Shown one piece after another: positions 4,436-38,473 of a DNA stretch of 64,000 nt. Source of the stretch: Nitrospirota bacterium (GTDB lineage: Bacteria; Nitrospirota; Thermodesulfovibrionia; Thermodesulfovibrionales; UBA9159). Location of the stretch: assembly GCA_037441365.1 (NCBI GenBank), contig JBBISG010000003.1, positions 14,624-78,623 of the forward strand, given 5' to 3'. A program made the translations under genes and the position numbers. Positions within the stretch are counted from its first letter, which is position 1. Each line of letters begins with the position of its first letter. The notes under the pieces were generated by a model. That model did not search any database and had not been told where the DNA came from. It was given only the letters and a program-made list of their open reading frames with translations.

Positions 4436-4475
4436 GGATATAGGTCCTATAGGACTACTTATAAGACCTATATCC
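4436..4475. repeat. REP-like element copy 1 (GGATATAGGTCCTATAGGACTaCTTATAAGACCTATATCC)
   Basis: 11-bp terminal inverted repeat GGATATAGGTC/GACCTATATCC with nested palindromes; 9 nt after the glnA stop; 4 copies in the window. Confidence 0.8.
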
Positions 4476-6051: not shown

Positions 6052-6129
6052 AGGAAGTGAGGGAGTTTCTTATTTAGTTCCTATTTAACTATTTGTTTGT
6101 TAATTGACAAACCAAGGGAGGAGGATGAG

Positions 6130-6912: not shown

Positions 6913-6922
6913 TGGAGAGGGG

Positions 6923-8727: not shown

Positions 8728-8746
8728 AAAGGAGGAGGTAATATCA

Positions 8747-11211: not shown

Positions 11212-11258
11212 TTCTCTGGAATTCTTTCATATTCTTATAATGGAAAGGATGGATAGAA

Positions 11259-12035
11259 ATGGCAACAGTACTCTTTGATAATGGTGTTCATAAATGTATC
11301 GTCTTTGATGATATTTTAAGCGGAGATGTTAGAGGGACGGACATCCAGGCAAACCAGTTCCTTATAATACACAATGGTGAAGGATTACTGTATGACCCTG
11401 GGGGGAGTAAGGTTTTTGATCCCCTTTATAAAAGGGTTTCAGAATTTATTAAACCTTCGAGGATAAAGACCATCGTGCTTTCCCATCAGGACCCTGACAC
11501 AGGGGCTGCTATAAACTGGTGGATGCTGTTTTCAGCATCTAAGGTCTTTGTGCCGAGTCTCTGGATAAGGTTTATACCACATTTTACCAGATTAGACGTT
11601 GAAGCGGGTTACTATGTCCCCATACCTGAACAGGGGATGCGATATGATTTTCATGGCTCAGAGATAATTATGCTGCCAGCACATTTTCTACATTCCCCTG
11701 GTAATGTCCAGCTTTATGATACAGCCTCGAAGATACTCTTTTCGGGCGACCTGGGGACATCTATTGTTCCCGATGCAAAGTGGTTTACAGAGGTGATAGA
11801 TTTTGAAGAGCATGTGAGATATATGGAAGGCTTTCACAAGAGATATATAGCCTCTCAGAAGGCGTGCAGGCTATGGGCTAATATGGTGAGGAGATTGGAT
11901 ATTGAGGCAATAGTTCCCCAGCATGGACATAGATACTTTAAGGGTAAAGCTATGGTCAACAGATTTATTGACTGGATAAGTGATCTACAGTGTGGCGTGG
12001 ACTTACTCGATGGGGAAAACTACAAAATTCCATAG
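11259..12035 (+). CDS. MBL-fold metallo-protein (variant HQDPD motif; diiron/ODP-like possible)
   Basis: 258 aa; LSHQDPDTGAAINWW in place of HxHxDH; later His/Asp ligand contexts HFLHSPG, FSGDLG, PQHG. Confidence 0.65.
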   Translation: MATVLFDNGVHKCIVFDDILSGDVRGTDIQANQFLIIHNGEGLLYDPGGSKVFDPLYKRVSEFIKPSRIKTIVLSHQDPDTGAAINWWMLFSASKVFVPSLWIRFIPHFTRLDVEAGYYVPIPEQGMRYDFHGSEIIMLPAHFLHSPGNVQLYDTASKILFSGDLGTSIVPDAKWFTEVIDFEEHVRYMEGFHKRYIASQKACRLWANMVRRLDIEAIVPQHGHRYFKGKAMVNRFIDWISDLQCGVDLLDGENYKIP

Positions 12036-12122
12036 TATCCATAATGAATCTACCGCAGCAATGACAAACCTACAACCTGTCATTCCTTCGCTATGTTCAG
12101 GACGGCGGCTGAATCCTTCGAG

Positions 12123-12156
12123 GGATATAGGTCCTATAGGACTTATAAGACCTCTA
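12123..12156. repeat. REP-like element copy 3
   Basis: GGATATAGGTCCTATAGGACTTATAAGACCTCTA; translated spuriously as EGYRSYRTYKTSK in the track ORF 12093. Confidence 0.8.
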
Positions 12157-12161
12157 AAATT

Positions 12162-13541
12162 ATGAGTCTACTCAAAGGGAAAGAGATGGCTTCTGATATT
12201 CTTTTTCCAATCCCAGATCGGGAGTCACGCCGCCTTGCTGCCGGCTGGCTGATACTCAGCATAGCATCCCTTGTCGCTGCCGGATTATTTTCGATAGTCC
12301 TTGTGCTGTCGCGAACACCCTATGTGCAGAACATCTTCCCATGGGTGGATTTTTTTCATTCAGCCCTGGTTGTGCATGTGGACCTTTCGATCCTGATATG
12401 GTTTCTCTGCTTTGGAGGTGTGTTGTGGAGTATAAACTCTCTCCCGAGGTGGTCGGGTCTGGGCTGGCTGTCCCTTTTCCTTTCAGCTTCAGGAGGTTTA
12501 ATAATAGCTATTTCGCCATTTCTCGGAGCAGGTCGCCCTCTCATGAACAACTACGTGCCTGTCCTTCAGGACCCTATGTTTTTTGCCGGACTTGCAGTAT
12601 TTGCAGTAGGAATCCTCCTGATGCTGGCGCGAAGTTTAGCAGCTCATACCCCTCTGGGGAGTCTGATGGATATTGCGAGTGGATTAAGATTCGGGATTTA
12701 TGCCTCGTCGATGACTGCATCTATCGGAGCGGTTGCGATTGTCTGGTCGTATCTGACTATCCCCGATGCCATTCAGGGCACGGTGTATTATGAGGTTCTC
12801 TTCTGGGGAGGGGGGCATATCCTTCAGTTTGTATATCTCATACTCATGCTTGTTGCATGGCTGTGGTTGGCCTATGTTTCTGGTATACCCTTTCGCATGA
12901 GTCCACTGATAGTTATCCTTCTATTTGGGCTCCTCCTTGCGGTGGTTCTTCTTACCCCGGTGATTTATCTATCCTTTGATACAGGCTCATTTGGGCATCG
13001 GCAGTCATTCACCCTGTTGATGAAATACGGCATGGGGCTGCCGCCACTCTTGATCGGCATGGTTTTGCTGAAGGGGATTTTGCAGAGAAAGGCCACTGAA
13101 AATATGCGCCATATCCGTGCAGCCCTTACCACCTCTATGGTGCTTTTTGGATCTGGTGGGGTTATCGGTTTCTTAATCAATGGCATTAATGTCACTATAC
13201 CATCCCATTATCATGGCGCTATTGTAGGAGTGACCCTGTCATTCATGGGATTGACTTACTATCTATTGCCCCATCTCGGTTTCCGCAATCCCACACCCCG
13301 CCTCTCCATCATCCAGCCCTATATTTATGGTATTGGCCAGCTTTTGCACATCCTCGGCCTCGCCTGGGCAGGCGGCTATGGTGTCCAGCGCAAGGTGGCA
13401 GGCAGCGCTCAGGGCCTGGATAGCTTCAAGAAGATGTTGAGCATGGGGATCATGGGCATTGGTGGATTTATAGCCGTTATCGGAGGCTTCCTGTTTTTAG
13501 TGGTGGTTATTCATGCCTTGTGGCCTACCCGTGAACAGTGA
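12162..13541 (+). CDS. heme-copper-oxidase-subunit-I-like 12-TM membrane protein (divergent)
   Basis: start moved to ATG 12162 (alt 12186) past the REP copy; LFWGGGHILQF and GGVIGF...IPSHYHGAIVG parallel helix VI and X motifs of the coxI in this window. Confidence 0.5.
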   Translation: MSLLKGKEMASDILFPIPDRESRRLAAGWLILSIASLVAAGLFSIVLVLSRTPYVQNIFPWVDFFHSALVVHVDLSILIWFLCFGGVLWSINSLPRWSGLGWLSLFLSASGGLIIAISPFLGAGRPLMNNYVPVLQDPMFFAGLAVFAVGILLMLARSLAAHTPLGSLMDIASGLRFGIYASSMTASIGAVAIVWSYLTIPDAIQGTVYYEVLFWGGGHILQFVYLILMLVAWLWLAYVSGIPFRMSPLIVILLFGLLLAVVLLTPVIYLSFDTGSFGHRQSFTLLMKYGMGLPPLLIGMVLLKGILQRKATENMRHIRAALTTSMVLFGSGGVIGFLINGINVTIPSHYHGAIVGVTLSFMGLTYYLLPHLGFRNPTPRLSIIQPYIYGIGQLLHILGLAWAGGYGVQRKVAGSAQGLDSFKKMLSMGIMGIGGFIAVIGGFLFLVVVIHALWPTREQ

Positions 13542-13661
13542 GCAATATTTTCCTATTTCCTATTTCCCAGCTTCATCAATGCGGTAGTGCGATAGTCTGA
13601 CTGTCACTCAGCTGCCCCTCAGTATTCAATTTTGAATTATAAAGTTACCTAAAATTATAAC

Positions 13662-13691
13662 TTGACAATTTTAAGAATTCAGGATTAAAAT
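13662..13691 (+). promoter_or_regulatory. sigma-70-like promoter (TTGACA-18 nt-TAAAAT)
   Basis: read directly upstream of the 13870 operon. Confidence 0.4.
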
Positions 13692-13744
13692 AATCTTGAT
13701 TATGATTTACCGAAAAAACCGAGAAATGCTTTTTATGGTCAAAA

Positions 13745-13767
13745 AGGACGGTTTCCGTCCTGTTTTT
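13745..13767 (+). terminator. intrinsic-terminator-like hairpin in the 5' leader (AGGACGG-ttt-CCGTCCT + GTTTTT)
   Basis: 7-bp GC-rich stem, 3-nt loop, T-run; sits between the promoter at 13662 and the ATG at 13870. Confidence 0.4.
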
Positions 13768-13869
13768 AAATACCAAGAGGAGGGTTTAAGATGGCAGAAG
13801 AAGCAGTAGGTATGAATGGAAACCTGTAAAGGGTTTCGCTCATTAAAAACTAAAAAGGAGGAAATTGAT

Positions 13870-15207
13870 ATGTATCCTATCTGGGAAGTGCCAAATTTAA
13901 GTGCGGGGATTATACTGGCACTGATTGCAGCATTTCATATCCTGCCCTCACATCTCTCGACAAGTGCCATGTGGTTTAATGTCTTTGTAGAGACAAAGGC
14001 ATACAGGGAAAACAGGCCTGAATATCTTGAATTCATTAAAAAATACACTCTGCTTTTGCTTGTATTCGCCTATGTCCTCGGTTCCTTGAGCGGAATTGGC
14101 ATCTGGTATTCTGCCACTGTGGCAAACCCGAGGGGTATTTCAGGTCTGATCCACAACTATGTCTGGGGATGGGCAACAGAATGGGTCTTTTTCATAATCG
14201 AGGTGACAGGGATATTCATCTATTACTATACCCTCGGCAAGGTGGATAGAAAGACCCATCTGAAGATCGGCTGGATATTTGCCATTGGCTCATGGACGAC
14301 CATGGTAATTATTGTCGGCATTTTAGCCTTTATGCTTTCGCCAGGCAAATGGCCTGAGACAGGAAATTTCTTTGACGGCTTCTTCAACCAGACATACTGG
14401 TCTCAGCTTTTGATGAGGACTACATTGATGTTTGGCATTGCAGCAGCCTATGCCATTGCAGTGGCAACGAGGATAAAAAATGCGGATGTGAGGTCATTCA
14501 TTACGAAGACAGCATCAAAGTGGGGAGTAGCAGGTTTAATACTCGGCTGTGTTTTGTTCTTATGGTACCTGAAGACCCTTCCTGATGCAAACCGTATGTT
14601 GATTACAGCGCTTGTGCCGCAGGGACTTAAGACAGGGATAATTGTTTCGTTAGGGTTGTTGGTTCTCTATTTCATCTATGCAAATGTAAAACCTCTCGGC
14701 ATCAGACTTTTTCCTGCTATTCTGGCAATCGCTGTGCTTTTTGGAGGCATCTGGTCAACCGAGAGAATCAGGGAAATGATAAGGAAGCCATATATCATTC
14801 CTCAATATATGTATTCCAACCAGATAATAGGAAAGGACATTCCAGCAAAGGGTGTAAGCGCTGAGGCAAAAATTATAAACGAAAAGGGGATACTCAAGGT
14901 TGCACCCTTTGTGCCTGATGGTTTAAGGGAGATAAACGAAGGCAATCAGGTGCAGGCAGGAAAGATGATAGCCCTGATTGAATGCTCATCCTGTCATGTC
15001 CTAAATGAAAAGGGTTTAAGGGCAATGCCGCAGATGGTGAGGAGGCTTGAGTTTAAACCCCATGCAGAGGCTGCTGATGAGATCAAAGAGGTTGAGGGCT
15101 TTATTGATGCGCTTGGTGGATACCCTTATATGCCGCCTTTTGTTGGTTCAGTAGCAGAGAAAAAGGCATTAGCAACATATCTGCATTCAATTTCACGCAT
15201 CAAATAA
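13870..15207 (+). CDS. cytochrome bd subunit-I-like membrane domain fused to a C-terminal mono-heme cytochrome c
   Basis: ATG 13870 has an AAAGGAGGA SD; N-terminal helices recall CydA (AFHILPSHLS, ATEWVFFIIEVTG); C-terminal CSSCH with downstream Met. Confidence 0.5.
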   Translation: MYPIWEVPNLSAGIILALIAAFHILPSHLSTSAMWFNVFVETKAYRENRPEYLEFIKKYTLLLLVFAYVLGSLSGIGIWYSATVANPRGISGLIHNYVWGWATEWVFFIIEVTGIFIYYYTLGKVDRKTHLKIGWIFAIGSWTTMVIIVGILAFMLSPGKWPETGNFFDGFFNQTYWSQLLMRTTLMFGIAAAYAIAVATRIKNADVRSFITKTASKWGVAGLILGCVLFLWYLKTLPDANRMLITALVPQGLKTGIIVSLGLLVLYFIYANVKPLGIRLFPAILAIAVLFGGIWSTERIREMIRKPYIIPQYMYSNQIIGKDIPAKGVSAEAKIINEKGILKVAPFVPDGLREINEGNQVQAGKMIALIECSSCHVLNEKGLRAMPQMVRRLEFKPHAEAADEIKEVEGFIDALGGYPYMPPFVGSVAEKKALATYLHSISRIK

Positions 15208-15217
15208 GGAGGATAAC

Positions 15218-16429
15218 ATGGAAATAAATACAATGTTAAAGGCCTTGCAGGATCCGATGGGGGTACCATTTTATCCGGTTGTGTTTCAGGTTTTGATGGT
15301 GCTCACTTTTGCACTTCATATAATGTTCGTGAATTTTACCCTCGGGACATCATTCTTATCCGTATATGGATATCTAAAGGGAGGAGAAAACTGGGGAAGG
15401 CTTTCTAGATCACTTGCGAAGGCAACCACAGCCAATATCTCCATGGCAATGCTTTTAGGGGTAGCGCCGCTTCTCTTTGTTCAGGTTGTGTATGACCCGT
15501 TCTGGTATGCATCCAATACCCTTTCTGCCGCATGGGTTATAGGTTTTATATTCATAATGATGCTCGGCTACAGCCTGACATATGTCTTCTACCTGAAGAG
15601 GGATTCAAGGGGAGGAGGCTTTGCTATATTCGGGGTTATAGCCTTAGCCCTCTTTCTGCTTTCAGGCATCATCATGCATGCCCTCGGGTATCAACTGCTT
15701 CAACCTGAAAAGTGGCTTCAATGGTATGTGAGGGGAAATTCTGTTGATACATCCGGGACATCCCTACATGCCTTCCAGCTTCCGAGGTTTCTGCATTTCA
15801 TTATCCCGTCCTTTGCCATGACAGGCATATTCCTGATGCTTTATGCATGGTATTTCAAAAACAGGACAGATTCCGATAAAGGCTATCTTGAATGGGTTGG
15901 CAGAACCGGCGCAAAGATGGCATTCACTTTTACAGCCATACAGGCCATTGTCGGCTTCTGGTGGTTGTTCAGTCTGCCTGGTGAGTTCAATTTCTTCACA
16001 AGCCCGTTCTTTCTAATAGGCGCAGCGCTTGGAATCGCATTGCTGTTTTTTCTCTATAATGCGCAGAAGGATCCCGTTAAATACGCAGTGCCGGGCATAC
16101 TGGGGGCTTTCCTGACAATCCTTGGAATGTCCTATGCGAGGGAAGCTTTGAGGATGAAATATCTCAGCCGCTTTGATTATTCCATCTTTAACTACAAGCT
16201 GAATATTGACTGGGGCAGCACAGCCTTATTCCTAACAACATTTGTGATGGGCCTGTCCATCATAGGCTATCTTATATCCGTTGCATATAAGTCCGGCAGG
16301 GTCGCGGGTGAATTTACTGCCACGCCTTCCATGAACAAATGGGGAAGGATCAGCATTGCCTTGCTTTTGGCCTGGATAGTTGTGGTGGCAGGGTTGGGGG
16401 TTATAATATCTCTCAAAAACTACTTATGA
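15218..16429 (+). CDS. polytopic membrane protein, operon partner of the bd-like subunit (function unknown)
   Basis: 403 aa, about 9-10 hydrophobic helices; AAGGAGGA SD; 10-nt gap from the upstream gene. Confidence 0.5.
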   Translation: MEINTMLKALQDPMGVPFYPVVFQVLMVLTFALHIMFVNFTLGTSFLSVYGYLKGGENWGRLSRSLAKATTANISMAMLLGVAPLLFVQVVYDPFWYASNTLSAAWVIGFIFIMMLGYSLTYVFYLKRDSRGGGFAIFGVIALALFLLSGIIMHALGYQLLQPEKWLQWYVRGNSVDTSGTSLHAFQLPRFLHFIIPSFAMTGIFLMLYAWYFKNRTDSDKGYLEWVGRTGAKMAFTFTAIQAIVGFWWLFSLPGEFNFFTSPFFLIGAALGIALLFFLYNAQKDPVKYAVPGILGAFLTILGMSYAREALRMKYLSRFDYSIFNYKLNIDWGSTALFLTTFVMGLSIIGYLISVAYKSGRVAGEFTATPSMNKWGRISIALLLAWIVVVAGLGVIISLKNYL

Positions 16430-17201: not shown

Positions 17202-17627
17202 TTAATGGCTCATAAAGAACCTGTCGAGAATACCCCTTAGCATCCTTGCGTGTCTTGCCTCATCTCTCGATGACTCATCAAAGAAGTCATGGGCAGGATC
17301 ACAGTTGCACTCCCTTGCCTTTTTTGCAGCCTCTTTCTTGCCCTTATTTGCGCCGATCTCTCCCTGAAGCATCTTCTCAAGGTTTTCCTTTGTGCTCTTC
17401 GAGATGAGGCCATTCATTTCTGCGAACTGGGCTGCATGTTCTGCCTCTTCCCATGCAATTGTCTTTAGCGTCTCGGCCACCTCTGGATAGCCGTCCCTTT
17501 GTGCCTGCCTTGCCATTGCAAGGTAGAGACCCACCTCTGTGCATTCCCCCTTAAAGTTTCCCATTACAGCATCCTCTACCTCGGTGCCTTTTGCTACGCC
17601 AATTTCATGTTCATTGATAAGCTCCAT
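17202..17627 (-). CDS. rubrerythrin-like diiron (ferritin-like) protein lacking the rubredoxin domain
   Basis: 141 aa; ExxH motifs EEAEHAAQF and DEARHARML. Confidence 0.85.
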
Positions 17628-18517: not shown

Positions 18518-18934
18518 TTATATCACCTCCTCCTTTTGCTCATGGTTCTGGCAATCAGGGCATATTCCATAAAACTCGATATGGTTGCCGATTATCTTGA
18601 ATCCGCCCTGTGATTCCTTTTTAACAGTAACTGAGAATTTATTGTGAATATCCATGATCTTCCTGCATCTGATACAGATCAGGTGGTGATGTGGTTCGGT
18701 GTTAGGGTCGAATCTCTTTTTATCAGGGTCTATTGTGAGTTCGATTATGTTTCCCCTTTTCCTCAGCGCATCAAGGGTGTTATAGACAGTTGCAAAGGAC
18801 ATGGTAGGGAATCTCTTTGATACCTTCCTGTAAATCTCTTCTGCAGAGGGATGATTCTTGTTACCATCAAGGTAATCAAGAATCGCCAGCCTCTGCGGTG
18901 TTAGTTTGAACCCTATGTTTTTATATTTTTCCAT
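18518..18934 (-). CDS. Fur family regulator (PerR-like by context)
   Basis: 138 aa; wHTH; HHHLICIRCRKIMD and CPDC zinc motifs. Confidence 0.9.
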   Translation of the reverse strand: MEKYKNIGFKLTPQRLAILDYLDGNKNHPSAEEIYRKVSKRFPTMSFATVYNTLDALRKRGNIIELTIDPDKKRFDPNTEPHHHLICIRCRKIMDIHNKFSVTVKKESQGGFKIIGNHIEFYGICPDCQNHEQKEEVI

Positions 18935-24795: not shown

Positions 24796-25362
24796 ATGAA
24801 GGAGATATTTATAGACATCGAGAGGTGCACTGCCTGTAAATCCTGCGAGATTGCCTGTTCTGTGCAACATTCAAAATCAAAGGACCTTTTTACTGCTATC
24901 TCTGAATTCCCACCACCGATAAGAAGGATACATGTGGAAAAGGCCCTCTCTTATTCTTATCCCTCAAAGTGTATGCATTGCGCAGAGGCACCGTGCATGA
25001 TGGCCTGTCCTGTTGGGGCAATATACAGGGATACCGATCTGGGCAGCGTCCATGTCAATAAAGACAGATGCATGGGATGCTGGATGTGCGCCATGGTCTG
25101 CCCCTTCGGGGCGATCACTGCAGACCCTTATATGAAGGTTGCGAGGAAGTGTGATTTCTGCAGGAAAAGGGTAAAGGAGGGCAAGAAGCCTGCGTGTGTG
25201 GAGGCGTGCCCGACCCATGCCCTCAGTTACGGCGAGGTAGATGACCTTTCCAAGGCACAGAGGTTGTCCGCTGCAGAGCGTGTTGCAAGGGCAGTGAGTG
25301 CGGCAGGGGAAGAAAGGAAGATAACACCGTTAAAGATGTTGAGAGATATGGGAGGTGTGTGA
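24796..25362 (+). CDS. cooF: CooF-like 4Fe-4S ferredoxin-type iron-sulfur protein
   Basis: 188 aa with 4 CxxCxxCxxxCP-type clusters; overlaps cooS start. Confidence 0.85.
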   Translation: MKEIFIDIERCTACKSCEIACSVQHSKSKDLFTAISEFPPPIRRIHVEKALSYSYPSKCMHCAEAPCMMACPVGAIYRDTDLGSVHVNKDRCMGCWMCAMVCPFGAITADPYMKVARKCDFCRKRVKEGKKPACVEACPTHALSYGEVDDLSKAQRLSAAERVARAVSAAGEERKITPLKMLRDMGGV

Positions 25363-27263
25363 TGGCGATAAAGACCTTTGACAGGGCCACTCAGGTCTTG
25401 ATAGACAGGGCAGAGGCGTTGGGGATAGAGACAGGGATTCACAGGCTTGAATCCCAACAACCCCAGTGCGGATTCGGTCAGCTTGGAACATGCTGCCGCA
25501 TGTGTTATATGGGGCCATGCAGAATAGATCCCTTTGGAGAAGGGGCTACAATGGGGGTCTGCGGTGCATCGGCTGATACAATTGTCTGCAGAAACCTCTT
25601 GAGGGAAGAGGTGGGAGGCGCATCATCCCATGTGGGGCATGCAAGGCATGTTGTGCTTGCCTTCAAGAAGATGCTCAATGGGGAGGCCCCAGGATATAGA
25701 ATCTCTGACAGGGATAAATTGATGGAGGTGGCCAGGGGGCTTGGAATAGAGATCGATGGGAAATCCGATATGGAGATTGCGGGTGATGTTGCGGACAAGG
25801 CGCTGGAGGATTTATCGAGACAGAACGGAGAGCCCATGAACTGGCTCAGATTGAGAGCGCCTAAGAGGGAATTCGAGATGTGGAGGGCACTCGGTCTCCT
25901 CGTCTCCAACGCGCACAATGAGATCGAGGAGGCGATGCACAGGACATCAATGGGCAATGATGCCGATCCTGTAAATCTCCTTTTTGCCTGTCTGAAGATC
26001 GGCCTTGTGGATGGCTATGCGGGGCTGCATTTGGCTACAGATTTTCAGGATATCATGTTCGGCACACCACGTGTGAGGACTGTTGATGCGAATATGGCTG
26101 TTCTTGAGAAGGATAAGGTTAATATTGCCATACACGGCCATAATCCTGTCCTTTCAGAAAAGGTCCTTGAATTTGCCTCTAAGCTTGAAGATGAGGCACG
26201 GCAGGCTGGTGCGCAGGGCATAAATGTGGTTGGTGTTTGCTGCACAGGCAACGAGCTGACCATGAGACACGGGGTCCCTATGGCAGCTCATAATCTCCAG
26301 TCCGAAATAATACTGCTTACAGGTGCGGTCGATGCAATGGTTGTAGATATGCAGTGCATATGGCCATCCACAACAAAGATATCAGAGTGTTTCCATACCA
26401 AGGTCATTACAACAGAACCCTTTGTAAAGATACCAGGCGCGAGCCATGTTAGTTTTGAGCCCGAACATGCCGATGAAGAGGCAGAGAAGATCGTGAGGAT
26501 GGCTATAGATGCCTATAGGGCGAGGAAGGGTGAAGATGTTGTTATCCCAAAAGAGAAGTCTGTGGGATTTGCAGGCTTCTCTATAGAGGCGATTCTGGAT
26601 GTGCTTGGCAAGATAGACCCCTCAGATCCGCTGAAACCCGTTGTTGATAATATCGTAAATGGAAACATCTATGGCGCTGTGGGATTTGCGGGCTGTCCGA
26701 GTATAAAGCTCAGGGATACATCCATGACAGAGAGGATGGCGAGAGAACTTTTGAAAAATAATGTGCTAATAGTCACCACAGGGTGCACAGCCCATATCTG
26801 TGCCCAGGCAGGGCTGATGGATTCCTCTGCCACTGATAAATACTGCGGTGAGGGACTAAAGGCTGTGCTTCATGTCATAGGAAAGGCTGCGGGCCTTGAT
26901 GTGCCACTGCCTCCTGTATGGCATATGGGTGCCTGTGTGGACAATTCGAGAATTGCTTCACTTCTCGGTGCGCTGGCGGAAAGGCTTGGTGTGAAGATCA
27001 GCCAGCTTCCTGTGGCTGGCTCGGCCCCTGAGCTTGTCCAGGAAAAGGCGATATCGATAGGGACATGGCTCCTTGCCCTTGGACTTCTCGTCCATGTTGC
27101 GCCGAGTCCAAGGATTCTGGGCAGCCCTGTTGCTACAAAGGTGTTGACGCAGGAACTTGAAGGTATTACCGGCGGTAAGGCATATGTAGAGCTCGACCCC
27201 GAGAAGGCAGTAGAAGGGATAATGGCTCATATTGGACAGAAGAGGAAGGCACTGGGGATTTAG
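25359..27263 (+). CDS. cooS: anaerobic Ni-Fe carbon monoxide dehydrogenase catalytic subunit
   Basis: 634 aa; N-terminal CGFGQLGTCCRMCYMGPCRI cluster B/D motif; GVCCTGNE; GCTAH. Confidence 0.9.
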   Translation: MMAIKTFDRATQVLIDRAEALGIETGIHRLESQQPQCGFGQLGTCCRMCYMGPCRIDPFGEGATMGVCGASADTIVCRNLLREEVGGASSHVGHARHVVLAFKKMLNGEAPGYRISDRDKLMEVARGLGIEIDGKSDMEIAGDVADKALEDLSRQNGEPMNWLRLRAPKREFEMWRALGLLVSNAHNEIEEAMHRTSMGNDADPVNLLFACLKIGLVDGYAGLHLATDFQDIMFGTPRVRTVDANMAVLEKDKVNIAIHGHNPVLSEKVLEFASKLEDEARQAGAQGINVVGVCCTGNELTMRHGVPMAAHNLQSEIILLTGAVDAMVVDMQCIWPSTTKISECFHTKVITTEPFVKIPGASHVSFEPEHADEEAEKIVRMAIDAYRARKGEDVVIPKEKSVGFAGFSIEAILDVLGKIDPSDPLKPVVDNIVNGNIYGAVGFAGCPSIKLRDTSMTERMARELLKNNVLIVTTGCTAHICAQAGLMDSSATDKYCGEGLKAVLHVIGKAAGLDVPLPPVWHMGACVDNSRIASLLGALAERLGVKISQLPVAGSAPELVQEKAISIGTWLLALGLLVHVAPSPRILGSPVATKVLTQELEGITGGKAYVELDPEKAVEGIMAHIGQKRKALGI

Positions 27264-27270
27264 CATTACC

Positions 27271-27307
27271 GGGCACCCCAAAAAGTCTGCGACTTTTTGG
27301 GGTGCCC
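27271..27307. repeat. palindromic element, full copy (17-bp perfect stem, loop TGC)
   Basis: GGGCACCCCAAAAAGTC-TGC-GACTTTTTGGGGTGCCC, 8 nt after the cooS stop. Confidence 0.9.
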
Positions 27308-27345
27308 CTTTCATGGTCTTCGTCTGAAGGGTTGATGGTATTTCG

Positions 27346-28560
27346 ATGAGAATTATAATCATAGGCAATGGCGCTGCTGCCATAAGCGCAGTAGAGGCGA
27401 TACGGAGATGGAATAGAGATTGTGTGGTCACAATAGTGTCAAAGGAAAGAGAACCTGTGTATACCCCCTGTTTTCTCAGTAACTATCTGAGTGGAGAGAT
27501 CGATAAGGGTAGACTCTATATAAGAGACAGCCGTTTTTACGATGAAAATAAGATAGAAACGATATTTGGAAATGCTGCCCTTGAGGTCAGGGATAAATGG
27601 ATAAGGCTCTCGGATGGAAGAGAGCTGCCCTATGACAGGCTCTTGATAGCTGCTGGGTCAAGCCCTGTTGTCCCACAATTGCCTGATATGGAGGGGGAAG
27701 GTGTCTTTTCTTTCAAGACCATTGCAGATGCTGATGGTATTAGATCCGCCATTGCAGATGCAGGTGAAGCAGTGGTGATGGGAGCAGGCTTTATCGGTCT
27801 GGAGGTGGCAGAGGCCCTCAAGAAAAGGGGGGTTAAGGTTACTGTAATAGAGAGGGAAGACAGGATTCTCCCCAGAATGTTAGACAACGAGATGTCAGGG
27901 ATTGTGAGGGAACATTTAGAAAACAACGGGATAAGGATAATTACTGGGAAGGAAATAAGACTTATTCGGAGGGTCAGAGGGCGGCTTTCAGGTCTTGATA
28001 TCGGGGGAGAGACTGTCCCATGTAGATTGTTAATTTTAGCAGCAGGTGTTAGGCCGAATCTTGAGATGATCAGGGATGGATTTGTGAAGGTTCGAGATGG
28101 GATCCTGGTGGATGGCCGTATGAAAACAAATATCGACAATATCTATGCTGCAGGCGATATAGCTGAGATGGAGACCATAGGGATCAGGAAGATTAATCCC
28201 ATATGGTTCAATGCTGTAAAGGGTGGCGAAGTGGCAGGATTGAATATGATCGGCATCGAAAAGAGATACGACATCCCTCTGGTCGATATGAATGTGGTTA
28301 CTCTTTTTGGACTGTCTATCCTTTCCGCTGGTATTCAAGAAGGTGCCAAGACAATAAAGGTTCATGACTCTAAAGGCATCAGAAAGATTTATCTGGACGA
28401 GGACGGGCTTGTAGCAGGAGTGCAGTTGATAGGTAATGTTACAAAGGGCGGTCTTTATCTGTCACTCATTAATAAACGTCTTCCTGTAAAGGATGAGATG
28501 GGGATTCTATCCTATAGATTTAATTATGGCGTTATGTTAAAGCAGCAGGCCCACAGATGA
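27346..28560 (+). CDS. FAD-dependent pyridine-nucleotide-disulfide oxidoreductase (CODH-associated)
   Basis: 404 aa; two GxGxxA/G dinucleotide folds (IIIIGNGAAA, VVMGAGFIGLE), YAAGD motif. Confidence 0.85.
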   Translation: MRIIIIGNGAAAISAVEAIRRWNRDCVVTIVSKEREPVYTPCFLSNYLSGEIDKGRLYIRDSRFYDENKIETIFGNAALEVRDKWIRLSDGRELPYDRLLIAAGSSPVVPQLPDMEGEGVFSFKTIADADGIRSAIADAGEAVVMGAGFIGLEVAEALKKRGVKVTVIEREDRILPRMLDNEMSGIVREHLENNGIRIITGKEIRLIRRVRGRLSGLDIGGETVPCRLLILAAGVRPNLEMIRDGFVKVRDGILVDGRMKTNIDNIYAAGDIAEMETIGIRKINPIWFNAVKGGEVAGLNMIGIEKRYDIPLVDMNVVTLFGLSILSAGIQEGAKTIKVHDSKGIRKIYLDEDGLVAGVQLIGNVTKGGLYLSLINKRLPVKDEMGILSYRFNYGVMLKQQAHR

Positions 28561-28632: not shown

Positions 28633-28642
28633 ATATGCATAT
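28633..28642. promoter_or_regulatory. ATATGCATAT palindrome overlapping the first ArsR start (candidate operator)
   Basis: same 10-mer recurs at 29010..29019; preceded by TTGACC-17-TAAAAT. Confidence 0.4.
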
Positions 28643-28973
28643 GCGAAAGGATAAGACACTCTTTGAGTTGCAATCCGATGTCTGTAAAACCCTTGCAAGC
28701 CCGAAGAGGATCGAGATACTCGATGCCCTGAAGAGCGGAGAGAAGACTGTTAGCGAGCTCGTGGAGATACTTGGTGTGCCAAAGGCAAATGTATCGCAAC
28801 ATCTTGCAGTGATGCGGTATAAGGGTATACTTAAATCGAGAAGGGAAGGGATAAACATATATTACAGCGTTTCGAATCCAAAGGTAATAGAGGCATGCAT
28901 TCTGATGAAAGAGGTCCTTATGGAGCAAATGAGAGAGAAGGGCAAGTTGGCAGAGATGGCATCAAGGGCATAA
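28635..28973 (+). CDS. ArsR/SmtB family transcriptional regulator
   Basis: 112 aa; LASPKRIEILDAL...VSELVEILGVPKANVSQHLAVMR wHTH; start may be ATG 28641 (leaderless). Confidence 0.85.
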   Translation: MHMRKDKTLFELQSDVCKTLASPKRIEILDALKSGEKTVSELVEILGVPKANVSQHLAVMRYKGILKSRREGINIYYSVSNPKVIEACILMKEVLMEQMREKGKLAEMASRA

Positions 28974-29024: not shown

Positions 29025-29369
29025 ATGCGTTCTATAGGTAGGAGAATAGAGGTCCTTCGGGTTATCGCCCATCCAACGAGGATCAGGATACTCGAGGAAC
29101 TTACAAAGGGTGTAAAGTGTGTGAGCGACCTTGAGGAGTTTCTCGAGATAAGTCAGCCGAATGTCTCACAGCATCTCGGCCTTTTAAGGCAGTATGGTTT
29201 GATTGACTATTACATGGATGGCAGGCTCAGGTGCTATTTTCTCAGGGACCCGATAATCCCTGATATCATAGAGATTCTGAAGAAGGATTACATCAGGGAG
29301 CTTCCAGCCCCTGCATGCTGTCCTGTAACAAAGAAGGGTAAATACCCGGGTAGGAGGGCATCAAAGTGA
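29025..29369 (+). CDS. ArsR/SmtB family transcriptional regulator (C-terminal CC motif)
   Basis: 114 aa; AHPTRIRILEEL...VSDLEEFLEISQPNVSQHLGLLR; PAPACCPV tail. Confidence 0.85.
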   Translation: MRSIGRRIEVLRVIAHPTRIRILEELTKGVKCVSDLEEFLEISQPNVSQHLGLLRQYGLIDYYMDGRLRCYFLRDPIIPDIIEILKKDYIRELPAPACCPVTKKGKYPGRRASK

Positions 29370-29396: not shown

Positions 29397-29753
29397 ATGG
29401 CAAAGAGATTTACATTGTTCCTGTCCACATCGCCTTATTCTTACGAGAACACGCTGACCACCATAAGGATCGCTGAGTCTGCTTTGAACAAAGGACATGT
29501 GGTGAATCTAATTGCATCAGGCGATGGGGTGTATTGTTTTTTGAAAGGTCAAAAGGCAAAGGGGGTACCTAATGCCGAAGAGAGATTCTCTGAACTTATC
29601 CAAAAGGGTTTAAGGGTCTATCTCTGAGGAGGCTGCATGAACTTTCGCCGTGCAGCGAAGGAAGACTATATTGACGGTGCAGAGGTGGGTTCTCTCAAGG
29701 GCCTCTTCAGGACCATGGGTGAGACGGATGTGTGGCTGAATATCGGTGTGTAA
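29397..29753 (+). CDS. DsrE/TusD-like sulfur-relay subunit with selenocysteine (UGA codon 77) at the active-site Cys position
   Basis: AAGGAGGT SD; 76-aa track ORF ...KGLRVYL-TGA(29625..29627)-GGCMNFRRAAKEDYIDGAEVGSLKGLFRTMGETDVWLNIGV-TAA; total 118 aa, normal DsrE length. Confidence 0.7.
29632..29656 (+). other. candidate bacterial SECIS hairpin (GCUGCAU-11 nt-GUGCAGC)
   Basis: 7-bp stem (one G-U) starting 5 nt 3' of the UGA. Confidence 0.4.
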
Positions 29754-31647: not shown

Positions 31648-34023
31648 ATGAAGAAACAATGGCTTGTTGAGTTTTCTGTTGACCATCCAAAAACCGTTGT
31701 CCTGCTCACAATAATTATCACTATTATCTTTATGACCCAGTTTCCAAAGATAAAGACAGACACAAATCCCAAAAACATGCTTCCTGCCACATCAGATGTA
31801 AGGGTATGGAATGATGAAGTTGACAGGATATTCGGACTTTATGAGGACACAATAGTAATCGGCATAAGAAATGAAAATGGAGTCCTGAATAAGGAGACCC
31901 TTGGAAAGATAAAGAGGATAACAGATGAGATACTGAAGATCAAGGGAGTTGCATCCAGTGATGTAAATAGCTTTCCTACAATTACAAATGTAACTGCTGA
32001 AAAGGGGACTTTAAGGGTAGCGCCTCTCATGACCGAAGTCCCAGAAACAGAAAGAAATATAAAGGCGCTTCAAAAGAACCTTTTTGAAAATCCCATACTC
32101 CTTGATCGCATTATCTCAAAGGATGGAAAGACGACAGCCATATATGTTCCCCTTGAAAAGGGAGCAAACGGTAAAGAGATTGCAGACAGGATCAGGGAGA
32201 TACTGAAGAATGAAAAAGGGGAGAAGGGCACCCAAAAAAGTCAAAGACTTTTTGGGGACCGCGGCGATGAGTTTTACATCGCAGGAGACCCTGTTGCAAG
32301 GGATACCTTTGGTGTTGAGATGTTCAAATTAATGGCGATCTTTGCTCCCCTTGCAGGTCTGATAATGCTTGTTGTGAGGTATCTCATGTTCAGGGATCTA
32401 TTCCTTTCAGTCACATTGATGATGGATGCAATGGTGAGCATTATCTGGAGCATGGGTCTTTTGATAGGGACAGGAATCCCTGTTCACATCATGAGTTCAA
32501 TGGCCCCTGTATTCCTTATGGCTATTGCAACAGACAGCATCCATATATTCAATGAATTCTACTTCCGTTTCAGAGAGAGCAAGGATAAGAGACTTGCAAT
32601 AGTAGAGACGATGAGGGCTGTTGGAAGGCCTGTCCGTTACACAGCAGCAGCAACTGCAGCAGGCTTTGCAGTCCTCCTCTTTATGCATATCATCCCTGTA
32701 AAGGTCTTTGGAGGTGTTGTCGCCTTTGGAACGATTGCCCTGAGGCTTCTGAGTTTCAGTTTCATCCCTGCTATGTTCATGTTTGTGAGCGAAAAGAAAC
32801 TTGAGGAGGCATCAAAGAGGGAGGATATAGAGGCAGGTGCATCGAGGCTTCTCAAAGGGCTTGCAAGGATAGGTGCAGAAAACCCTGTGAAGACAGCTAT
32901 TACAGGTCTTATCCTCTTTTTTGTAGCAATAGTCGGGATAACAAAGATAAATGTTAATAACAACATGGTGGACTGGTTCAAGAAGAAAAGCGAGATCCAC
33001 ATTGCTGACTCTGTTTTAAATAATGCCCTTGGCGGCACATCCCTCGGTTACATCGTGGCTATATCCTCAAAGGATGAGCATATCAAGACCCCTGAGGCAT
33101 TGAGATATATAGAAGGGCTCCAGAGGCACCTCGAAAAACTCCCTGTGGTTGGAAAGACCAGCTCAATAGCAGACCTCATAAAGAGGATAAACAGGGTGAT
33201 ACATGATAATGACCCTACTTACGACAGGGTTCCAGATTCAAAGGAGGTGATAGCCCAGTATCTATTCTTATTCAGCATGTCTGCAAGGCCCTCTGATATT
33301 GACAGCTTTATAGATTATCCAGCAAGAAGGGCAAACATGTGGGTCCAGTTAAAGACATGGGATGCAGAGGCAATGAGGGATGTGATAAAGGCTGTTGATG
33401 AGTATAAGAAGAAATCTCCTGCAGGAGACATAGAATTCAGACCTGCTGGCATTGCCTATTTCAATCTCGTCTGGAACGATGAGGTCCTCTGGGACATGGT
33501 AAAGGGCTTTGTCCTCGCAATCATAGCAGTCTTTGTGATATTGAGCCTTGACTTCCGCTCAATGAAATGGGCTTTCATTGCCTATATGCCGCTCCTGTTC
33601 ACGATTGTCCTCATCTACGGTGTAATCGGATATGTCGGCAAGGACTTTGATATGCCCATCTCCGTGCTTTCATGTCTCTCACTCGGTATGGCAGTGGACT
33701 TTGCCATTCATTTCATAAGCAGATTTAAACAGAGATTAAGAGAGAGTCAGGAGTCAGAAGTCAGGACTCAAAAGTTAAATCCTGAACTCCTTCGTGAAGC
33801 CTTGATCTGGACTGCTGCAAGGCCTGGAAAGGGAATCCTTCGTAATGCAGTTTTATTTGCATCGGCATTTTCAGTAATGCTCTTTGCACCACTTACACCC
33901 TATATAACCGTTGGTGCATTCATCGTAAGCATGATGATACTGAGTGCGATAATGACGATTATCTATCTGCCAGCCCTGATTACTTTAATGCAGGGGTGGT
34001 TATTCAAGGGAGGCACTAAATGA
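31648..34023 (+). CDS. RND-superfamily (MMPL/HpnN-like) exporter
   Basis: 791 aa; two 6-TM bundles with large loops; carries an in-frame palindromic element (32227..32260) and a heptamer-word segment (33744..33790). Confidence 0.85.
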   Translation: MKKQWLVEFSVDHPKTVVLLTIIITIIFMTQFPKIKTDTNPKNMLPATSDVRVWNDEVDRIFGLYEDTIVIGIRNENGVLNKETLGKIKRITDEILKIKGVASSDVNSFPTITNVTAEKGTLRVAPLMTEVPETERNIKALQKNLFENPILLDRIISKDGKTTAIYVPLEKGANGKEIADRIREILKNEKGEKGTQKSQRLFGDRGDEFYIAGDPVARDTFGVEMFKLMAIFAPLAGLIMLVVRYLMFRDLFLSVTLMMDAMVSIIWSMGLLIGTGIPVHIMSSMAPVFLMAIATDSIHIFNEFYFRFRESKDKRLAIVETMRAVGRPVRYTAAATAAGFAVLLFMHIIPVKVFGGVVAFGTIALRLLSFSFIPAMFMFVSEKKLEEASKREDIEAGASRLLKGLARIGAENPVKTAITGLILFFVAIVGITKINVNNNMVDWFKKKSEIHIADSVLNNALGGTSLGYIVAISSKDEHIKTPEALRYIEGLQRHLEKLPVVGKTSSIADLIKRINRVIHDNDPTYDRVPDSKEVIAQYLFLFSMSARPSDIDSFIDYPARRANMWVQLKTWDAEAMRDVIKAVDEYKKKSPAGDIEFRPAGIAYFNLVWNDEVLWDMVKGFVLAIIAVFVILSLDFRSMKWAFIAYMPLLFTIVLIYGVIGYVGKDFDMPISVLSCLSLGMAVDFAIHFISRFKQRLRESQESEVRTQKLNPELLREALIWTAARPGKGILRNAVLFASAFSVMLFAPLTPYITVGAFIVSMMILSAIMTIIYLPALITLMQGWLFKGGTK
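32227..32260. repeat. palindromic element, slightly degenerate copy inside the RND CDS
   Basis: GGCACCCAAAAAAGTC-AAA-GACTTTTTGGGGACC, translated in frame as GTQKSQRLFGD. Confidence 0.85.
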
Positions 34024-34826
34024 GAAAATCCAAGATTCTATCTATCTGTCTTCTGTTGTCTGTCCTCTGTCTTCTAACCTCTAAGGCCATTGCCATTACA
34101 CCAGAGGATGTAATGAAGAAATCACAGGCTGCGTTTCTGTATCAGGGAAAGGACTTCAAGGCACGGGTAATAATGAAACTCATAAGCAGGGGTGGTCAGG
34201 AAAGGATAAGGGAGCTCACCATGCTGAGGAAGAACTATGGTGAGCCTGGCGGCAATCAGAAATATTTTATCTATTTCTTCCAGCCTGCTGATGTAAAGGA
34301 TATGACATTTATGGTCTACAAATATCCTGCAAGAGACGATGACAGATGGCTCTTTGTGCCTGCCATAAATATGGTCAGGAGGATTGCTGCTCAGGATAAG
34401 CGCTCAAGCTTTGTTGGTTCTGATTTTACATATGAGGATGTCTCTGGAAGGGATATTGATGATGACACCCATACAATTCTGAAGGAAGAAAAACTTGGAG
34501 AAAGGGCCTGCTATGTGATAAAGAGCACACCAAAGGCAGGAGATATGGATTATAGCTACAAACTATCATGGATTGATAAGGCAAACTTTCTGCCTTTAAA
34601 AGAAGAATACTACGACAGAAAAGGTGAACTCTATAAGGTCTTCACTGCTGATGAAATAAGGGAGATAAAGGGATTTCCTACGGTGACGAAGAGGACGATG
34701 AAAAATCTCCAGAGCGGGCACAGGACAGAGGTTACATTCATAAAGGCTGATTACAACATCGGCATTGAGGATAGCCTATTTTCAGAACGTTTTTTAAAAC
34801 AACCACCAAAAAGGTGGATTGATTAA
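34020..34826 (+). CDS. LolA-like outer-membrane lipoprotein-sorting family protein
   Basis: 268 aa with signal peptide; ATGA overlap with the RND gene; typical RND-MMPL neighbour. Confidence 0.65.
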   Translation: MRKSKILSICLLLSVLCLLTSKAIAITPEDVMKKSQAAFLYQGKDFKARVIMKLISRGGQERIRELTMLRKNYGEPGGNQKYFIYFFQPADVKDMTFMVYKYPARDDDRWLFVPAINMVRRIAAQDKRSSFVGSDFTYEDVSGRDIDDDTHTILKEEKLGERACYVIKSTPKAGDMDYSYKLSWIDKANFLPLKEEYYDRKGELYKVFTADEIREIKGFPTVTKRTMKNLQSGHRTEVTFIKADYNIGIEDSLFSERFLKQPPKRWID

Positions 34827-36352: not shown

Positions 36353-38473
36353 CTACATGCTTACCCTCACCTTCCATGTGGTTCCGTCCTTTTTATCCTC
36401 AAGGATTATCCCCTGTTCCTCCAGCTCCTTTCTTACGGCGTCTGCCGTTGCCCAGTCCTTCCTCTGTCTCGCCTCCTGCCTCTGCTTTATCCTGTCGAGA
36501 ATATCTTCCCTTGTGAGGGGGATATTCTTTGTCTTCATGAGGGAGTCATACCACTCATCAGGACTTTTATTGAAGATATTAAGCACGTTGCCAGCCTGAT
36601 GCAGCAGTTCCTTTGTTTTTGATACGAGGTCCCCTGCCTTCCGACCTGATGGCCTGGTGTCGAGAAACCTGTTAACCTCCCTTATCAGCTCAAAGATATA
36701 CCCCAGTGCCTGGGCAGTATTGAAGTCGTCATCCATAGCCTCTTTAAACTTATCCAGAAATGTAGAGACCGCATCTTCAAGGGTCTTCCCCTGCAGAGAC
36801 GGCCATGACGAACCTCCCTCTCCCTTAAATTCTTCCATCCTTATCAGGGTAGTGTAATATCTATCAAGGGATGCCTCTGCTTCTCTGAGCAATGCGTCAG
36901 AAAATTCTATAGGGCTTCTGTAGTGGGTCGAAAGGAGGAAGAATCTCACAACCTCAGAGTCGAACTTATCGAGTATCTCCCTGATGGTAAAGAAGTTACC
37001 GAGGGACTTTGACATCTTCTCCTTATCGATGGTGATAAAGCCGTTGTGCAGCCAGTATTTAACAAAGGGCTTGCCGGTATATGCCTCTGACTGGGCCAAT
37101 TCATTTTCATGGTGAGGGAATATCAGGTCTGCGCCGCCACCGTGGATATCAAAGCTCTCGCCAAGGTGTTTTATGGACATGGCAGTGCATTCGATATGCC
37201 AGCCTGGCCTCCCAGGACCCCACGGGCTCTCCCATGATGGCTCACCTTCTTTCGATGACTTCCAGAGGGCAAAATCCATTGGATTCCTCTTTCTCTCGTC
37301 TACCTCAACTCTGGCACCTGCAAGCATCTCCTCAATATCCCTCTTTGAGAGCTTTCCGTAATCAGGGAATCTGTTCACCTCAAAATACACATCTCCATCT
37401 ACAACATATGCATATCCCTTATCTATCAACACCCTGACTATCTCTATTATCTCCTGTATATGTTCTGTCGCCTTCGGCTCAACATCAGCCCTTCCGACAC
37501 CGAGCCTGTCCATGTCTTTGTAGTACTCCTCTGTGTATTTCCTTGCAACCTCATCCCACTGGATTCCTTCCTGCCTTGCCCTGTTAATTATCTTGTCGTC
37601 GATGTCGGTGAAGTTCCTTATGTATCTCACATCAAAACCTCTGAATCTCAGGTATCTCCTTATGACATCAAAGACGACGGCGCTCCTTGCATGGCCGATG
37701 TGGCATAGGTCATAGACTGTGACTCCACATGCGTACATGCCAATCTTATTAGGGGTCAGAGGGATCAGATCCTCTTTTTTACCTGTTAGGGTATTGAAGA
37801 CCCTTACCACTCCTCCTTTCCCCTCAAGCCTCTCTATCCTTTTTTCGAGTTCTGATATATGCTTTTCCATCTCGCTGAATTTCTCCTCCACCGGGTCGGG
37901 CATCTGGACGCGTGCAAGGCTCTCCACAGGTCCTTCTTCCATCATCCTGAGGACCCTCTTCTTGATGACCTTTCCAGGGACACCAACGACAATGGAGTAT
38001 TCAGGCACAGAACTGAGCACCACCGCATTGGCACCTATCCTTGCATAATCGCCTATGGTGATTGCGCCCAGTACCTTGGCCCCGGCCCCCACCACTACAT
38101 GATTCCCCAGTGTTGGATGGCGCTTCCCCTTTTCCTTTCCTGTCCCGCCGAGGGTTACACCCTGATAGAGAAGGCAGTCCTCTCCGATCTCTGTGGTCTC
38201 TCCTATCACAACACCCATGCCGTGGTCTATGAAAAAGCCCGGCCCTATCCTTGCTGCAGGGTGTATCTCGATACCTGTTAAGAACCTTGCGATATGCGAG
38301 ATAAGGCGGGGGATTACAGGTATCCCGAGCCTCCAGAGGAAATGATTTATCCTGTGAATGAATATGGCATGAAATCCTGGATAGGCGAGGATTACCTCAA
38401 GGCCATTTCTCGCAGCAGGGTCTTTCTCAAAGACTGCCCTGTAGTCCCTCTTTATGTCGCTCCAGAAACCCAC
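36353..38473 (-). CDS. cysS: fused serine O-acetyltransferase / cysteinyl-tRNA synthetase
   Basis: single 706-aa ORF, GTG start; aa 1-220 CysE (hexapeptide repeats, [16 protein letters not shown]-type tail); aa 222-706 CysRS ([13 protein letters not shown]). Confidence 0.85.

Follow-up and report, generated by a model that had tools for sequence, protein, structure and literature searches.

A predicted selenocysteine in the active site of a DsrE-like subunit encoded with F- and H-like partners beside sulfide:quinone oxidoreductase in Nitrospirota

Results

Reading frame of the E-like gene

The window analysed here (the whole stretch of 64,000 nucleotides from contig JBBISG010000003.1 of a Nitrospirota bacterium) carries at 29397-29753 a small gene of the DsrE superfamily, which is followed by a DsrF/TusC-like and a DsrH/TusB-like gene (E, F and H below), and its reading frame contains a TGA at 29625 that, on comparative sequence evidence, almost certainly specifies selenocysteine (Sec) in the active site of a small DsrE-like protein. 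The frame opens with ATG 29397, with a GGAGG Shine-Dalgarno sequence 7 nt upstream, the product begins MAKRF, and the frame reaches ...KGLRVYL before the TGA (29625-29627). Past the TGA it reads GGCMNFRRAAKEDYIDGAEVGSLKGLFRTMGETDVWLNIGV up to TAA 29751-29753, giving 118 codons in total with the TGA as codon 77. An earlier note on this DNA had joined the listed open reading frame (ORF) of 76 residues to this continuation to obtain a protein of 118 residues, which is confirmed by translation and by the Pfam DsrE profile (PF02635). When Sec is written as Cys (U->C) for profile matching of the 118-residue product, the match spans the TGA (residues 3-111, profile positions 1-111 of 116, E 6.6e-18), with 65.4 bits against a gathering score of 22.7. 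Read-through also shrinks the gap between E and F (next ATG at 29766) from 138 nt to 12 nt, in keeping with the 10-12 nt that separate the genes further on; the closure of this gap had been pointed out before, with a trivially different length of 139 nt.

Conservation of the TGA and its Cys counterparts

In the ortholog scan one genome per species was taken, which resulted in 28 loci, namely 23 orthologs (Nitrospirota/Thermodesulfovibrionales/Sulfobium/Dissulfurispiraceae) and five Cys homologs of other lineages. Codon 77 is TGA in 23/23 species-level orthologs, and the true terminator (codon 119) varies among them, being TAA in 4, TAG in 14 and TGA in 5. The 41 codons after the TGA are conserved as a peptide with abundant synonymous change (pS 0.67), and the ratio of nonsynonymous to synonymous differences (pN/pS, pairwise counts) is 0.14 over codons 5-76 and 0.18 over codons 78-118, so that the same purifying selection acts on both parts. 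The orthologs therefore do not end at residue 76, since the downstream codons are kept.

The protein search returned 472 relatives, and 118 of the best 120 cover only query residues ~1-76, mostly as entries of exactly 76 residues named "DsrE family protein" or "TusD component". The full-length proteins among the best 120 are P0007 and P0066, both of which have Cys at the TGA column (VYL-C-GGC and VEL-C-GTC, respectively). Cys also occupies this column in five homologs from Chloroflexota, a Methanobacteriota archaeon, Eubacteriales and Nitrososphaerales (L-C-G-x-C-L-x-F-R-G); the carriers of C-G-x-C are P0007, P0066, L029, L030, L032, L033 and L034. A profile search over 1.84 billion representatives gave 413 relatives at E <= 0.001, and after alignment of the best-scoring 149 (50%-identity representatives), Cys was found at the U77 column in 122 (100 with CxxC, 21 with the first Cys only), while nine, Rokubacteria among them, end exactly before it. 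In the DNA of Deltaproteobacteria, Desulfobacterales and Rokubacteria relatives the TGA is followed by G-T-C (U-G-T-C), and in a Nitrospirota paralog family annotated with 72 residues by T-G-C (U-T-G-C), with TGA in four paralog loci (two distinct sequences). Judged from these alignments, the interchange of TGA and Cys at one column is the classic Sec/Cys pattern. It is the full-length homologs that supply the Cys at codon 77, the species-level orthologs themselves all having TGA.

The paralogous Sec-form E-F-H module of Nitrospirota/Dissulfurispiraceae lies at 5001-6000 of L038/L039 and 5001-6070 of L040/L041, and reads RVDI-TGA-TGC. Reassignment of the stop codon was also considered and is ruled out, because TGA terminates 20 of the 55 main ORFs in the window.

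Protein type and active site

Membership of the canonical DsrE/TusD family was rejected, as the NCBIfam model TIGR03012 (TusD/DsrE) gives 15.9 bits, far below its cut-off of 89.25, and covers only the N-terminal 43 residues; NCBIfam YedF gives no match for the window protein at E <= 0.01. By sequence, the best solved relative is E. coli YchN (PDB 1JX7), which is matched over its full length with the profile (E 6.4e-7). HMMER aligns U77 with the first Cys of YchN LCKTC, so that LCKTC...RG stands opposite L-U-GGC...RR. Allochromatium vinosum DsrE (2hy5_A) matches residues 5-50 only (E 0.006). In a MAFFT alignment with TusD, whose sequence was translated from the E. coli K-12 record, U77 is placed opposite Cys78, the catalytic residue of TusD, with the RR/RG after the active residue shifted by one position. 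The earlier note had described a DsrE/TusD protein matching "position for position"; the superfamily and the column of TusD Cys78 hold, but the RR pair is offset by one and the subtype is YchN-like with CxxC, not canonical DsrE/TusD. Its principal claim, that of Sec at the active site, is supported by this alignment together with the Cys homologs and the TGA in 23/23 orthologs. From the aligned sequences, the motif is best read as a UxxC redox/relay motif rather than a lone persulfide Cys.

For the fold, an AlphaFold2 model of the Cys homolog P0007 (60% identical; predicted local distance difference test score, pLDDT, 83.9) stood in for the window protein; in it, the Cys lies where a strand ends and a helix begins. 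The 13 best PDB matches to this model (E <= 0.001) all have the DsrE/DsrF fold except a designed protein cage (8uja_A). YchN comes first (template modelling score, TM, 0.81), and among the others are chains of DsrEFH and a chain of TusBCD (TM 0.68-0.81 with YchN included). By this model, Sec77 is predicted to lie at the end of a beta-strand and the N-terminus of a helix, where it forms U-G-G-C with Cys80.

Hairpin after the UGA

A hairpin resembling a selenocysteine insertion sequence (SECIS) extends from 15 to 34 nt past the UGA (Table 1), and its RNAalifold consensus over the 23 orthologs is CUU(U/C)CGC / CGUGCR / GCG(A/C)A(A/G)G. The alignment cells of its stem are paired in 99.3%, against 34-61% for slid controls. 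Codons 82-87 (AAC TTY CGC CGT GCN GCG), which this hairpin overlaps, are nearly frozen at synonymous sites across the orthologs, and both Arg codons within them are invariant despite six available codons each. With a mean codon entropy of 0.37 bits against a gene mean of 1.33 bits, this is the lowest six-codon stretch of the gene (permutation P 0.00025), and its pS equals 0.20, compared with about 0.8 in other parts of the gene. In 15 of the 23 orthologs codon 86 ends in G, which would permit one more C-G pair, closing a tetraloop GUGC.

The 7-bp stem that had been noticed at 29632..29656 exists and has 8 bp in the window, where RNAfold finds it stronger than the conserved hairpin, yet its conservation is partial: over the orthologs 82% of its cells are paired, and at each of two positions a majority of the orthologs lack the pair. 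Owing to this imperfect conservation we do not prefer it as the signal; the invariant hairpin lies 10 nt further downstream and overlaps its 3' arm.

Other Sec-form lineages have hairpins equally far from the UGA. That of the paralog is CCGC-GGUCUU-GCGG, with C-G as its fourth stem pair in place of the U-A of the window, those of L042/L043 have the loop GGUCU, and Rokubacteria L044 has GCGAUUC-AGGG-GAAUCGC, built from wholly different codons. Across the lineages the apex lies 19-27 nt past the UGA and contains G/GU. This arrangement resembles the rule for E. coli fdhF, with the upper stem about 11 nt beyond the UGA and GGUC as the loop. The mean hairpin strength is -7.8 kcal/mol in Sec forms and -4.1 kcal/mol in Cys forms, a difference that is suggestive only, with five Cys forms and differing GC content. 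The Rfam scan of the window at gathering thresholds gave no match, which speaks neither for nor against a SECIS.

Operon and gene order in relatives

The features of the locus are collected in Table 1.

Table 1. Features at and around the E-like gene, in window coordinates
Feature	Position	Strand	Basis
Second ArsR/SmtB-family regulator	28635..28973	+	profile match
ArsR/SmtB-family regulator directly upstream of E	29025..29369	+	Pfam HTH_5; NCBIfam HTH_metalloreg, 78 bits
E-like subunit gene, 118-residue DsrE-superfamily (YchN-like, UxxC) predicted selenoprotein	29397..29753	+	translation, Pfam, orthologs
In-frame UGA, predicted Sec codon (U77)	29625..29627	+	orthologs, paralogs, Cys homologs
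Stem proposed in the earlier note, 8 bp (29632-29639/29649-29656)	29632..29656	+	RNAfold; overlaps the conserved hairpin
Cys80 codon, second residue of the U-G-G-C (UxxC) pair	29634..29636	+	TGC/TGT in 23/23 orthologs
SECIS-like hairpin CUUUCGC-CGUGCA-GCGAAGG (stem 29642-29648/29655-29661, loop 29649-29654)	29642..29661	+	RNAalifold; starts 15 nt after the UGA
DsrF/TusC-like subunit, 117 residues	29766..30119	+	Pfam DsrE, E 2.8e-16; TIGR03010, 48.2 bits (cut-off 94.15)
DsrH/TusB-like subunit, 93 residues	30130..30411	+	Pfam DsrH, E 6.1e-12; TIGR03011, 48.5 bits (cut-off 49.2)
Type-I sulfide:quinone oxidoreductase (SQR), 400 residues	30424..31626	+	Aquifex aeolicus SQR 3hyv_A, E 7e-102, full length
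MMPL/HAE3-type resistance-nodulation-division (RND) transporter	31648..34023	+	Pfam MMPL; TIGR00921 HAE3, 195.8 bits
LolA-like / TP_0789-like periplasmic protein, RND partner	34020..34826	+	Pfam LolA_like, E 5.2e-66; synteny

The proposal of an E-F-H trio holds, as Pfam DsrE, DsrE and DsrH match in this order and the order is kept in Nitrospirota and in other phyla. The F-like and H-like sequences of the window, judged by eye, have no Cys at the active-site column, and only the E-like subunit of the trio is predicted from sequence to carry the reactive residue. The SQR also matches that of A. ferrooxidans, and its Cys of GVSCFGP and of ...ICL/I.D.G stand opposite SQR Cys. The regulator directly upstream of E contains Cys32 (GVKCVSDL) and a C-terminal Cys98-Cys99; this spacing recalls the persulfide sensors BigR and SqrR, although the NCBIfam BigR score (43.6 against a cut-off of 155) is far too low for that model, and the protein is possibly a persulfide or metalloid sensor.

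Of 24 Nitrospirota loci, all have F beside E and 22 have H; in at least 17 the trio is followed directly by SQR, and an ArsR gene precedes E in about 19, as it also does in L033, L040, L043 and L044. The RND transporter and the LolA-like gene are syntenic in Nitrospirota and in Rokubacteria L044. Sec forms of the module include the Nitrospirota paralogs L038 (E-F-H, then an Aminotran_5 gene assigned to the cysteine desulfurase family by Pfam only) and L040 (ArsR, E-F-H), Desulfobacterales L043 (ArsR ... E-F-H, class-I disulfide reductase) and Rokubacteria L044 (ArsR, E-F-H, MMPL, LolA-like), while Cys forms are found in the Methanobacteriota archaeon L032 (YedE-like, TusA, E-F-H), Eubacteriales L033 (ArsR, E-F-H) and Chloroflexota L029 (a putatively Sec-containing selD directly upstream of E). 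The common denominator of these arrangements appears to be a three-subunit relay module beside a generator or carrier of sulfane sulfur, or possibly of selenium.

Several details of these loci may be recorded. Remnants of SQR lie downstream of the trio in L001 (7257-7868, 50% of the length) and L027 (~7116, 6%), and L001 has an extra ArsR gene. The selD of L029 (4917-5990), from a Chloroflexota metagenome-assembled genome (MAG), matches TIGR00476 with 395 bits and has its in-frame stop codon at GAG-U-ACK. In L032 (4423-7078) a YedE/YeeE-like membrane protein and a TusA-like protein precede the Cys-form trio, which looks like a split YedE/YedF.

A second in-frame TGA in the window

A peroxiredoxin gene on the reverse strand (18384-17773) has an in-frame TGA (18216-18214) at the position of the peroxidatic Cys (FYPADFTFV-U-ATE, motif T-x-x-U). 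Listed as an ORF of 130 residues, it matches the AhpC-TSA profile at positions 59-121 only (60.6 bits); its read-through product (U->C) covers positions 1-121 of 124 with 131.8 bits and also matches NCBIfam AhpC and PrxU. A hairpin of 9 bp follows 12-32 nt after this TGA, with its apex 21-23 nt downstream. This second gene with an in-frame TGA lends indirect support, from sequence, to Sec decoding in this genome. On the side of the Sec machinery, a review describes selC as embedded in selB in Nitrospirae (PMC13188914). The neighbours of the peroxiredoxin gene are a rubrerythrin (17202-17627) and a Fur/PerR-like regulator (18518-18934).

Other genes of the window

Just upstream of both ArsR genes, 24796-28560 (+) encodes a cooF-like ferredoxin, a CooS-type CO dehydrogenase (634 residues) and an FAD/NAD(P) oxidoreductase. 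A heme-copper oxidase cluster at 6097-16429 (+) includes COX3, COX2 with a cytochrome c domain, COX1 and UbiA (heme O synthase-like), together with an ODP-family protein of the metallo-beta-lactamase fold, a second, divergent COX1-like protein and a cytochrome bd-like protein; such a cluster deserves mention in a lineage usually treated as anaerobic. At 36353-38473 (-) an unusual fusion protein of 706 residues joins an N-terminal hexapeptide-repeat (acetyltransferase-like) region to a complete cysteinyl-tRNA synthetase.

Discussion

Weighing of the evidence

Taking all of the above together, we consider it very probable that the locus encodes a DsrE-fold protein of 118 residues with Sec77, presumably decoded with the aid of the mRNA hairpin; the protein would take part in a TusBCD-like relay with SQR as the likeliest sulfur donor. 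A number of observations weigh against this explanation and should be stated. Among about 50 window ORFs scanned with Pfam there was no selA, selB or selD, and ARAGORN found no tRNA-Sec in the window or in 33 related loci. No compensatory change was seen in the hairpin within the orthologous family, because the stem nucleotides are nearly invariant, and support for it is therefore drawn from synonymous-site statistics and from the hairpins of other lineages; part of its nucleotide conservation reflects the peptide N-F-R-R-A-A, and the alternative stem at 29632-29656 overlaps it and is itself partly conserved. With regard to the proposed function, all three subunits score below the NCBIfam TusD/C/B equivalog cut-offs, SQR is not beside the trio in L019, L020, L026 and L028, and elsewhere the partner gene differs (cysteine desulfurase-like, class-I disulfide reductase, YedE with TusA, or SelD). 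Finally, the ortholog L031 has an 8-nt deletion directly after the TGA (4446-4460), by which the G-G-C codons are lost and the frame is shifted, and which is either an assembly error or the mark of a decayed copy.

This deletion, together with the database entries described as "truncated", could suggest that the gene is a pseudogene or that the TGA itself is an error of sequencing or assembly. To this we give practically no credence, because the comparative data exclude it: the TGA recurs in 23 species-level assemblies that are independent of one another, and in three more phyla (or two, with the "Deltaproteobacteria" and Desulfobacterales MAGs merged), the downstream pN/pS is 0.18 and the operon is intact. 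It seems extremely improbable as well that the TGA is a genuine stop, with DsrE split into parts of 76 and 38 residues and the second translated separately from ATG 29637. In the window a GGAGG (29628-29632) and this ATG do follow the TGA, and some gene callers list an ORF of 38 residues there, but re-initiation is rejected for want of a conserved start codon: codon 81 could serve as a start (ATG/TTG) in only 11 of the 23 orthologs, the other 12 having CTG, CTC, CTT, TTA, GTC or CAG. Moreover, codons 78-80 (G-G-C) would go untranslated, yet they vary synonymously only, with Cys80 invariant, and the full-length homologs are single chains with C-G-x-C. Read-through of the UGA without Sec, either by a near-cognate Trp or Cys tRNA or by another programmed event that the hairpin stimulates, would agree with the lack of sel genes and tRNA-Sec within the window and of covariation in the family. 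We regard it as very unlikely, as the position is where the family has its conserved catalytic Cys (a classic Sec/Cys signature), UxxC is the motif of the predicted DsrE-like selenoprotein family (PMC1088965), a canonical selenoprotein type (the peroxiredoxin with T-x-x-U) is encoded in the same window, and TGA is an ordinary terminator elsewhere in it.

An alternative of a different kind accepts the selenoprotein and concerns its function only, namely that the module handles selenium, for example by binding selenide or delivering it to SelD, or by detoxification, in parallel to the YedE/YedF pair, which is associated with selenium and has the same CGxC in its DsrE-like domain. In L029 the putatively Sec-containing selD directly precedes the Cys-form E, and in L032 the trio follows a TusA-like protein and a YedE-like protein for which selen_YedE_FdhT is the best NCBIfam match (135.7 bits); YedF, which consists of TusA-like and DsrE-like parts with CGXC, has been linked to SelD (PMC5322559). 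However, the adjacency of selD is seen in one locus only, the YedE-like match is below its cut-off of 350 and that family also transports thiosulfate, the window and most orthologs have a bona fide SQR as the conserved neighbour, and the neighbour in the paralog is cysteine-desulfurase-like; each of these is a sulfur enzyme, although the family of the second includes selenocysteine lyases. A selenium role is thus rather unlikely in our opinion, and sulfur relay is the function that we propose.

Proposed mechanism and implications

To hypothesize, SelB with Sec-tRNA(Sec) would be recruited by the in-gene mRNA hairpin at 29642-29661, as in other bacteria, and the ribosome would insert Sec at the UGA and go on to TAA 29751. 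The products of E, F and H, whose gene order is seen directly, would then assemble as a TusBCD-like hetero-oligomer, in which the selenolate of Sec77 may accept sulfane sulfur as an Se-S-S(H) or selenenyl-sulfide intermediate, and Cys80 may resolve the adduct. The likeliest donor of sulfur at this locus would be the type-I SQR encoded immediately downstream, and the upstream ArsR-type repressor presumably controls the operon. Sulfur relay as the role of the module is what the gene neighbourhood suggests.

Thermodesulfovibrionia are mostly sulfate-reducing or sulfur-disproportionating Nitrospirota. In a survey of Nitrospirota, most of them were found to "possess dsrFH, but no dsrE" (PMC11033732), and we infer that dsrE goes unseen there because truncation at the Sec codon hides it. 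Hundreds of public entries end at residue 72-76 and are named "TusD component" or "DsrE family", since NCBIfam has no model that recognises the Sec-form protein. As dsrEFH serves as a marker of sulfur oxidation and the trio described here is not the canonical DsrEFH associated with reverse dissimilatory sulfite reductase (rDsr), caution is advised in the interpretation of metagenomes.

Sec at the relay position beside SQR is a candidate physiological acceptor of the sulfane sulfur derived from SQR. If this were true, it would be among the few cases in which selenium serves sulfur transfer rather than redox catalysis, SQR would gain a defined protein acceptor, and sulfide detoxification or sulfur trafficking in these lineages would depend on selenium. 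Only tentatively, and with more doubt than confidence, we extend the proposal further: the "missing dsrE" of Thermodesulfovibrionia would be a selenoprotein, a selenium-dependent TusBCD-like relay would operate also in the Desulfobacterota and Rokubacteria relatives, and the selenolate would be the dedicated acceptor of sulfane sulfur from type-I SQR (from cysteine desulfurase in the paralog module), possibly feeding export by the RND/LolA-like system.

Comparison with known systems

YchN is the closest known protein, being the best match by both sequence and fold, and its CxxC aligns with U-G-G-C, but the identity in the structural alignment with the P0007 model is 19%. YchN is a homo-oligomer that is encoded alone and has Cys instead of Sec, whereas F-like and H-like partner genes accompany that of the window protein. 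YedF shares a DsrE-like domain with C-G-x-C, and some Cys-form relatives of the window protein adjoin YedE-like/TusA-like genes or selD; unlike YedF, which is a fusion of TusA-like and DsrE-like parts, the window protein stands as a small subunit of its own beside its F and H partners.

A "DsrE-like protein" with PF02635 and UxxC joined the computationally predicted selenoprotein families in 2005, when Zhang and Gladyshev described it from the Sargasso Sea (PMC1088965). A DsrE-like selenoprotein was noted in Desulfovibrio vulgaris in a bacterial survey of 2006 (PMC1794560), and reviews list it as uncharacterised with WP_014524487.1 as the representative (PMC9312934, PMC13188914), so the statement in the earlier note that such selenoproteins had been predicted was right (PMC1088965, PMC1794560, PMC13188914). 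The window protein agrees with this family in the PF02635 domain, in Sec within UxxC (here U-G-G-C) and in having Cys homologs, and orthology with the published representatives (WP_014524487.1 and the D. vulgaris protein) is plausible given the Sec-form Deltaproteobacteria MAG relatives L042 and L043. The published tables give the family without operon context, while here an E-F-H trio is linked to SQR and two paralogous modules are found in Nitrospirota.

With TusBCD of E. coli (2D1P) and DsrEFH of Allochromatium vinosum (2HY5) the locus shares three consecutive genes for E/D-, F/C- and H/B-like subunits, a reactive residue on the first subunit only, U77 at the column of TusD Cys78, and the fold (TM 0.68-0.80 with the P0007 model). 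It differs from them in that the subunit scores (15.9/89, 48.2/94 and 48.5/49.2) are below the equivalog cut-offs, that Sec stands in UxxC in place of a lone Cys, and that SQR and an RND exporter adjoin the trio in place of genes of tRNA thiolation or rDsr. In our literature search, DsrE, DsrF, DsrH and selenocysteine appeared together in no paper found. The kind of protein is therefore already known, and what is new is its E-F-H/SQR context, the paralogous Sec module and the account of the missing dsrE.

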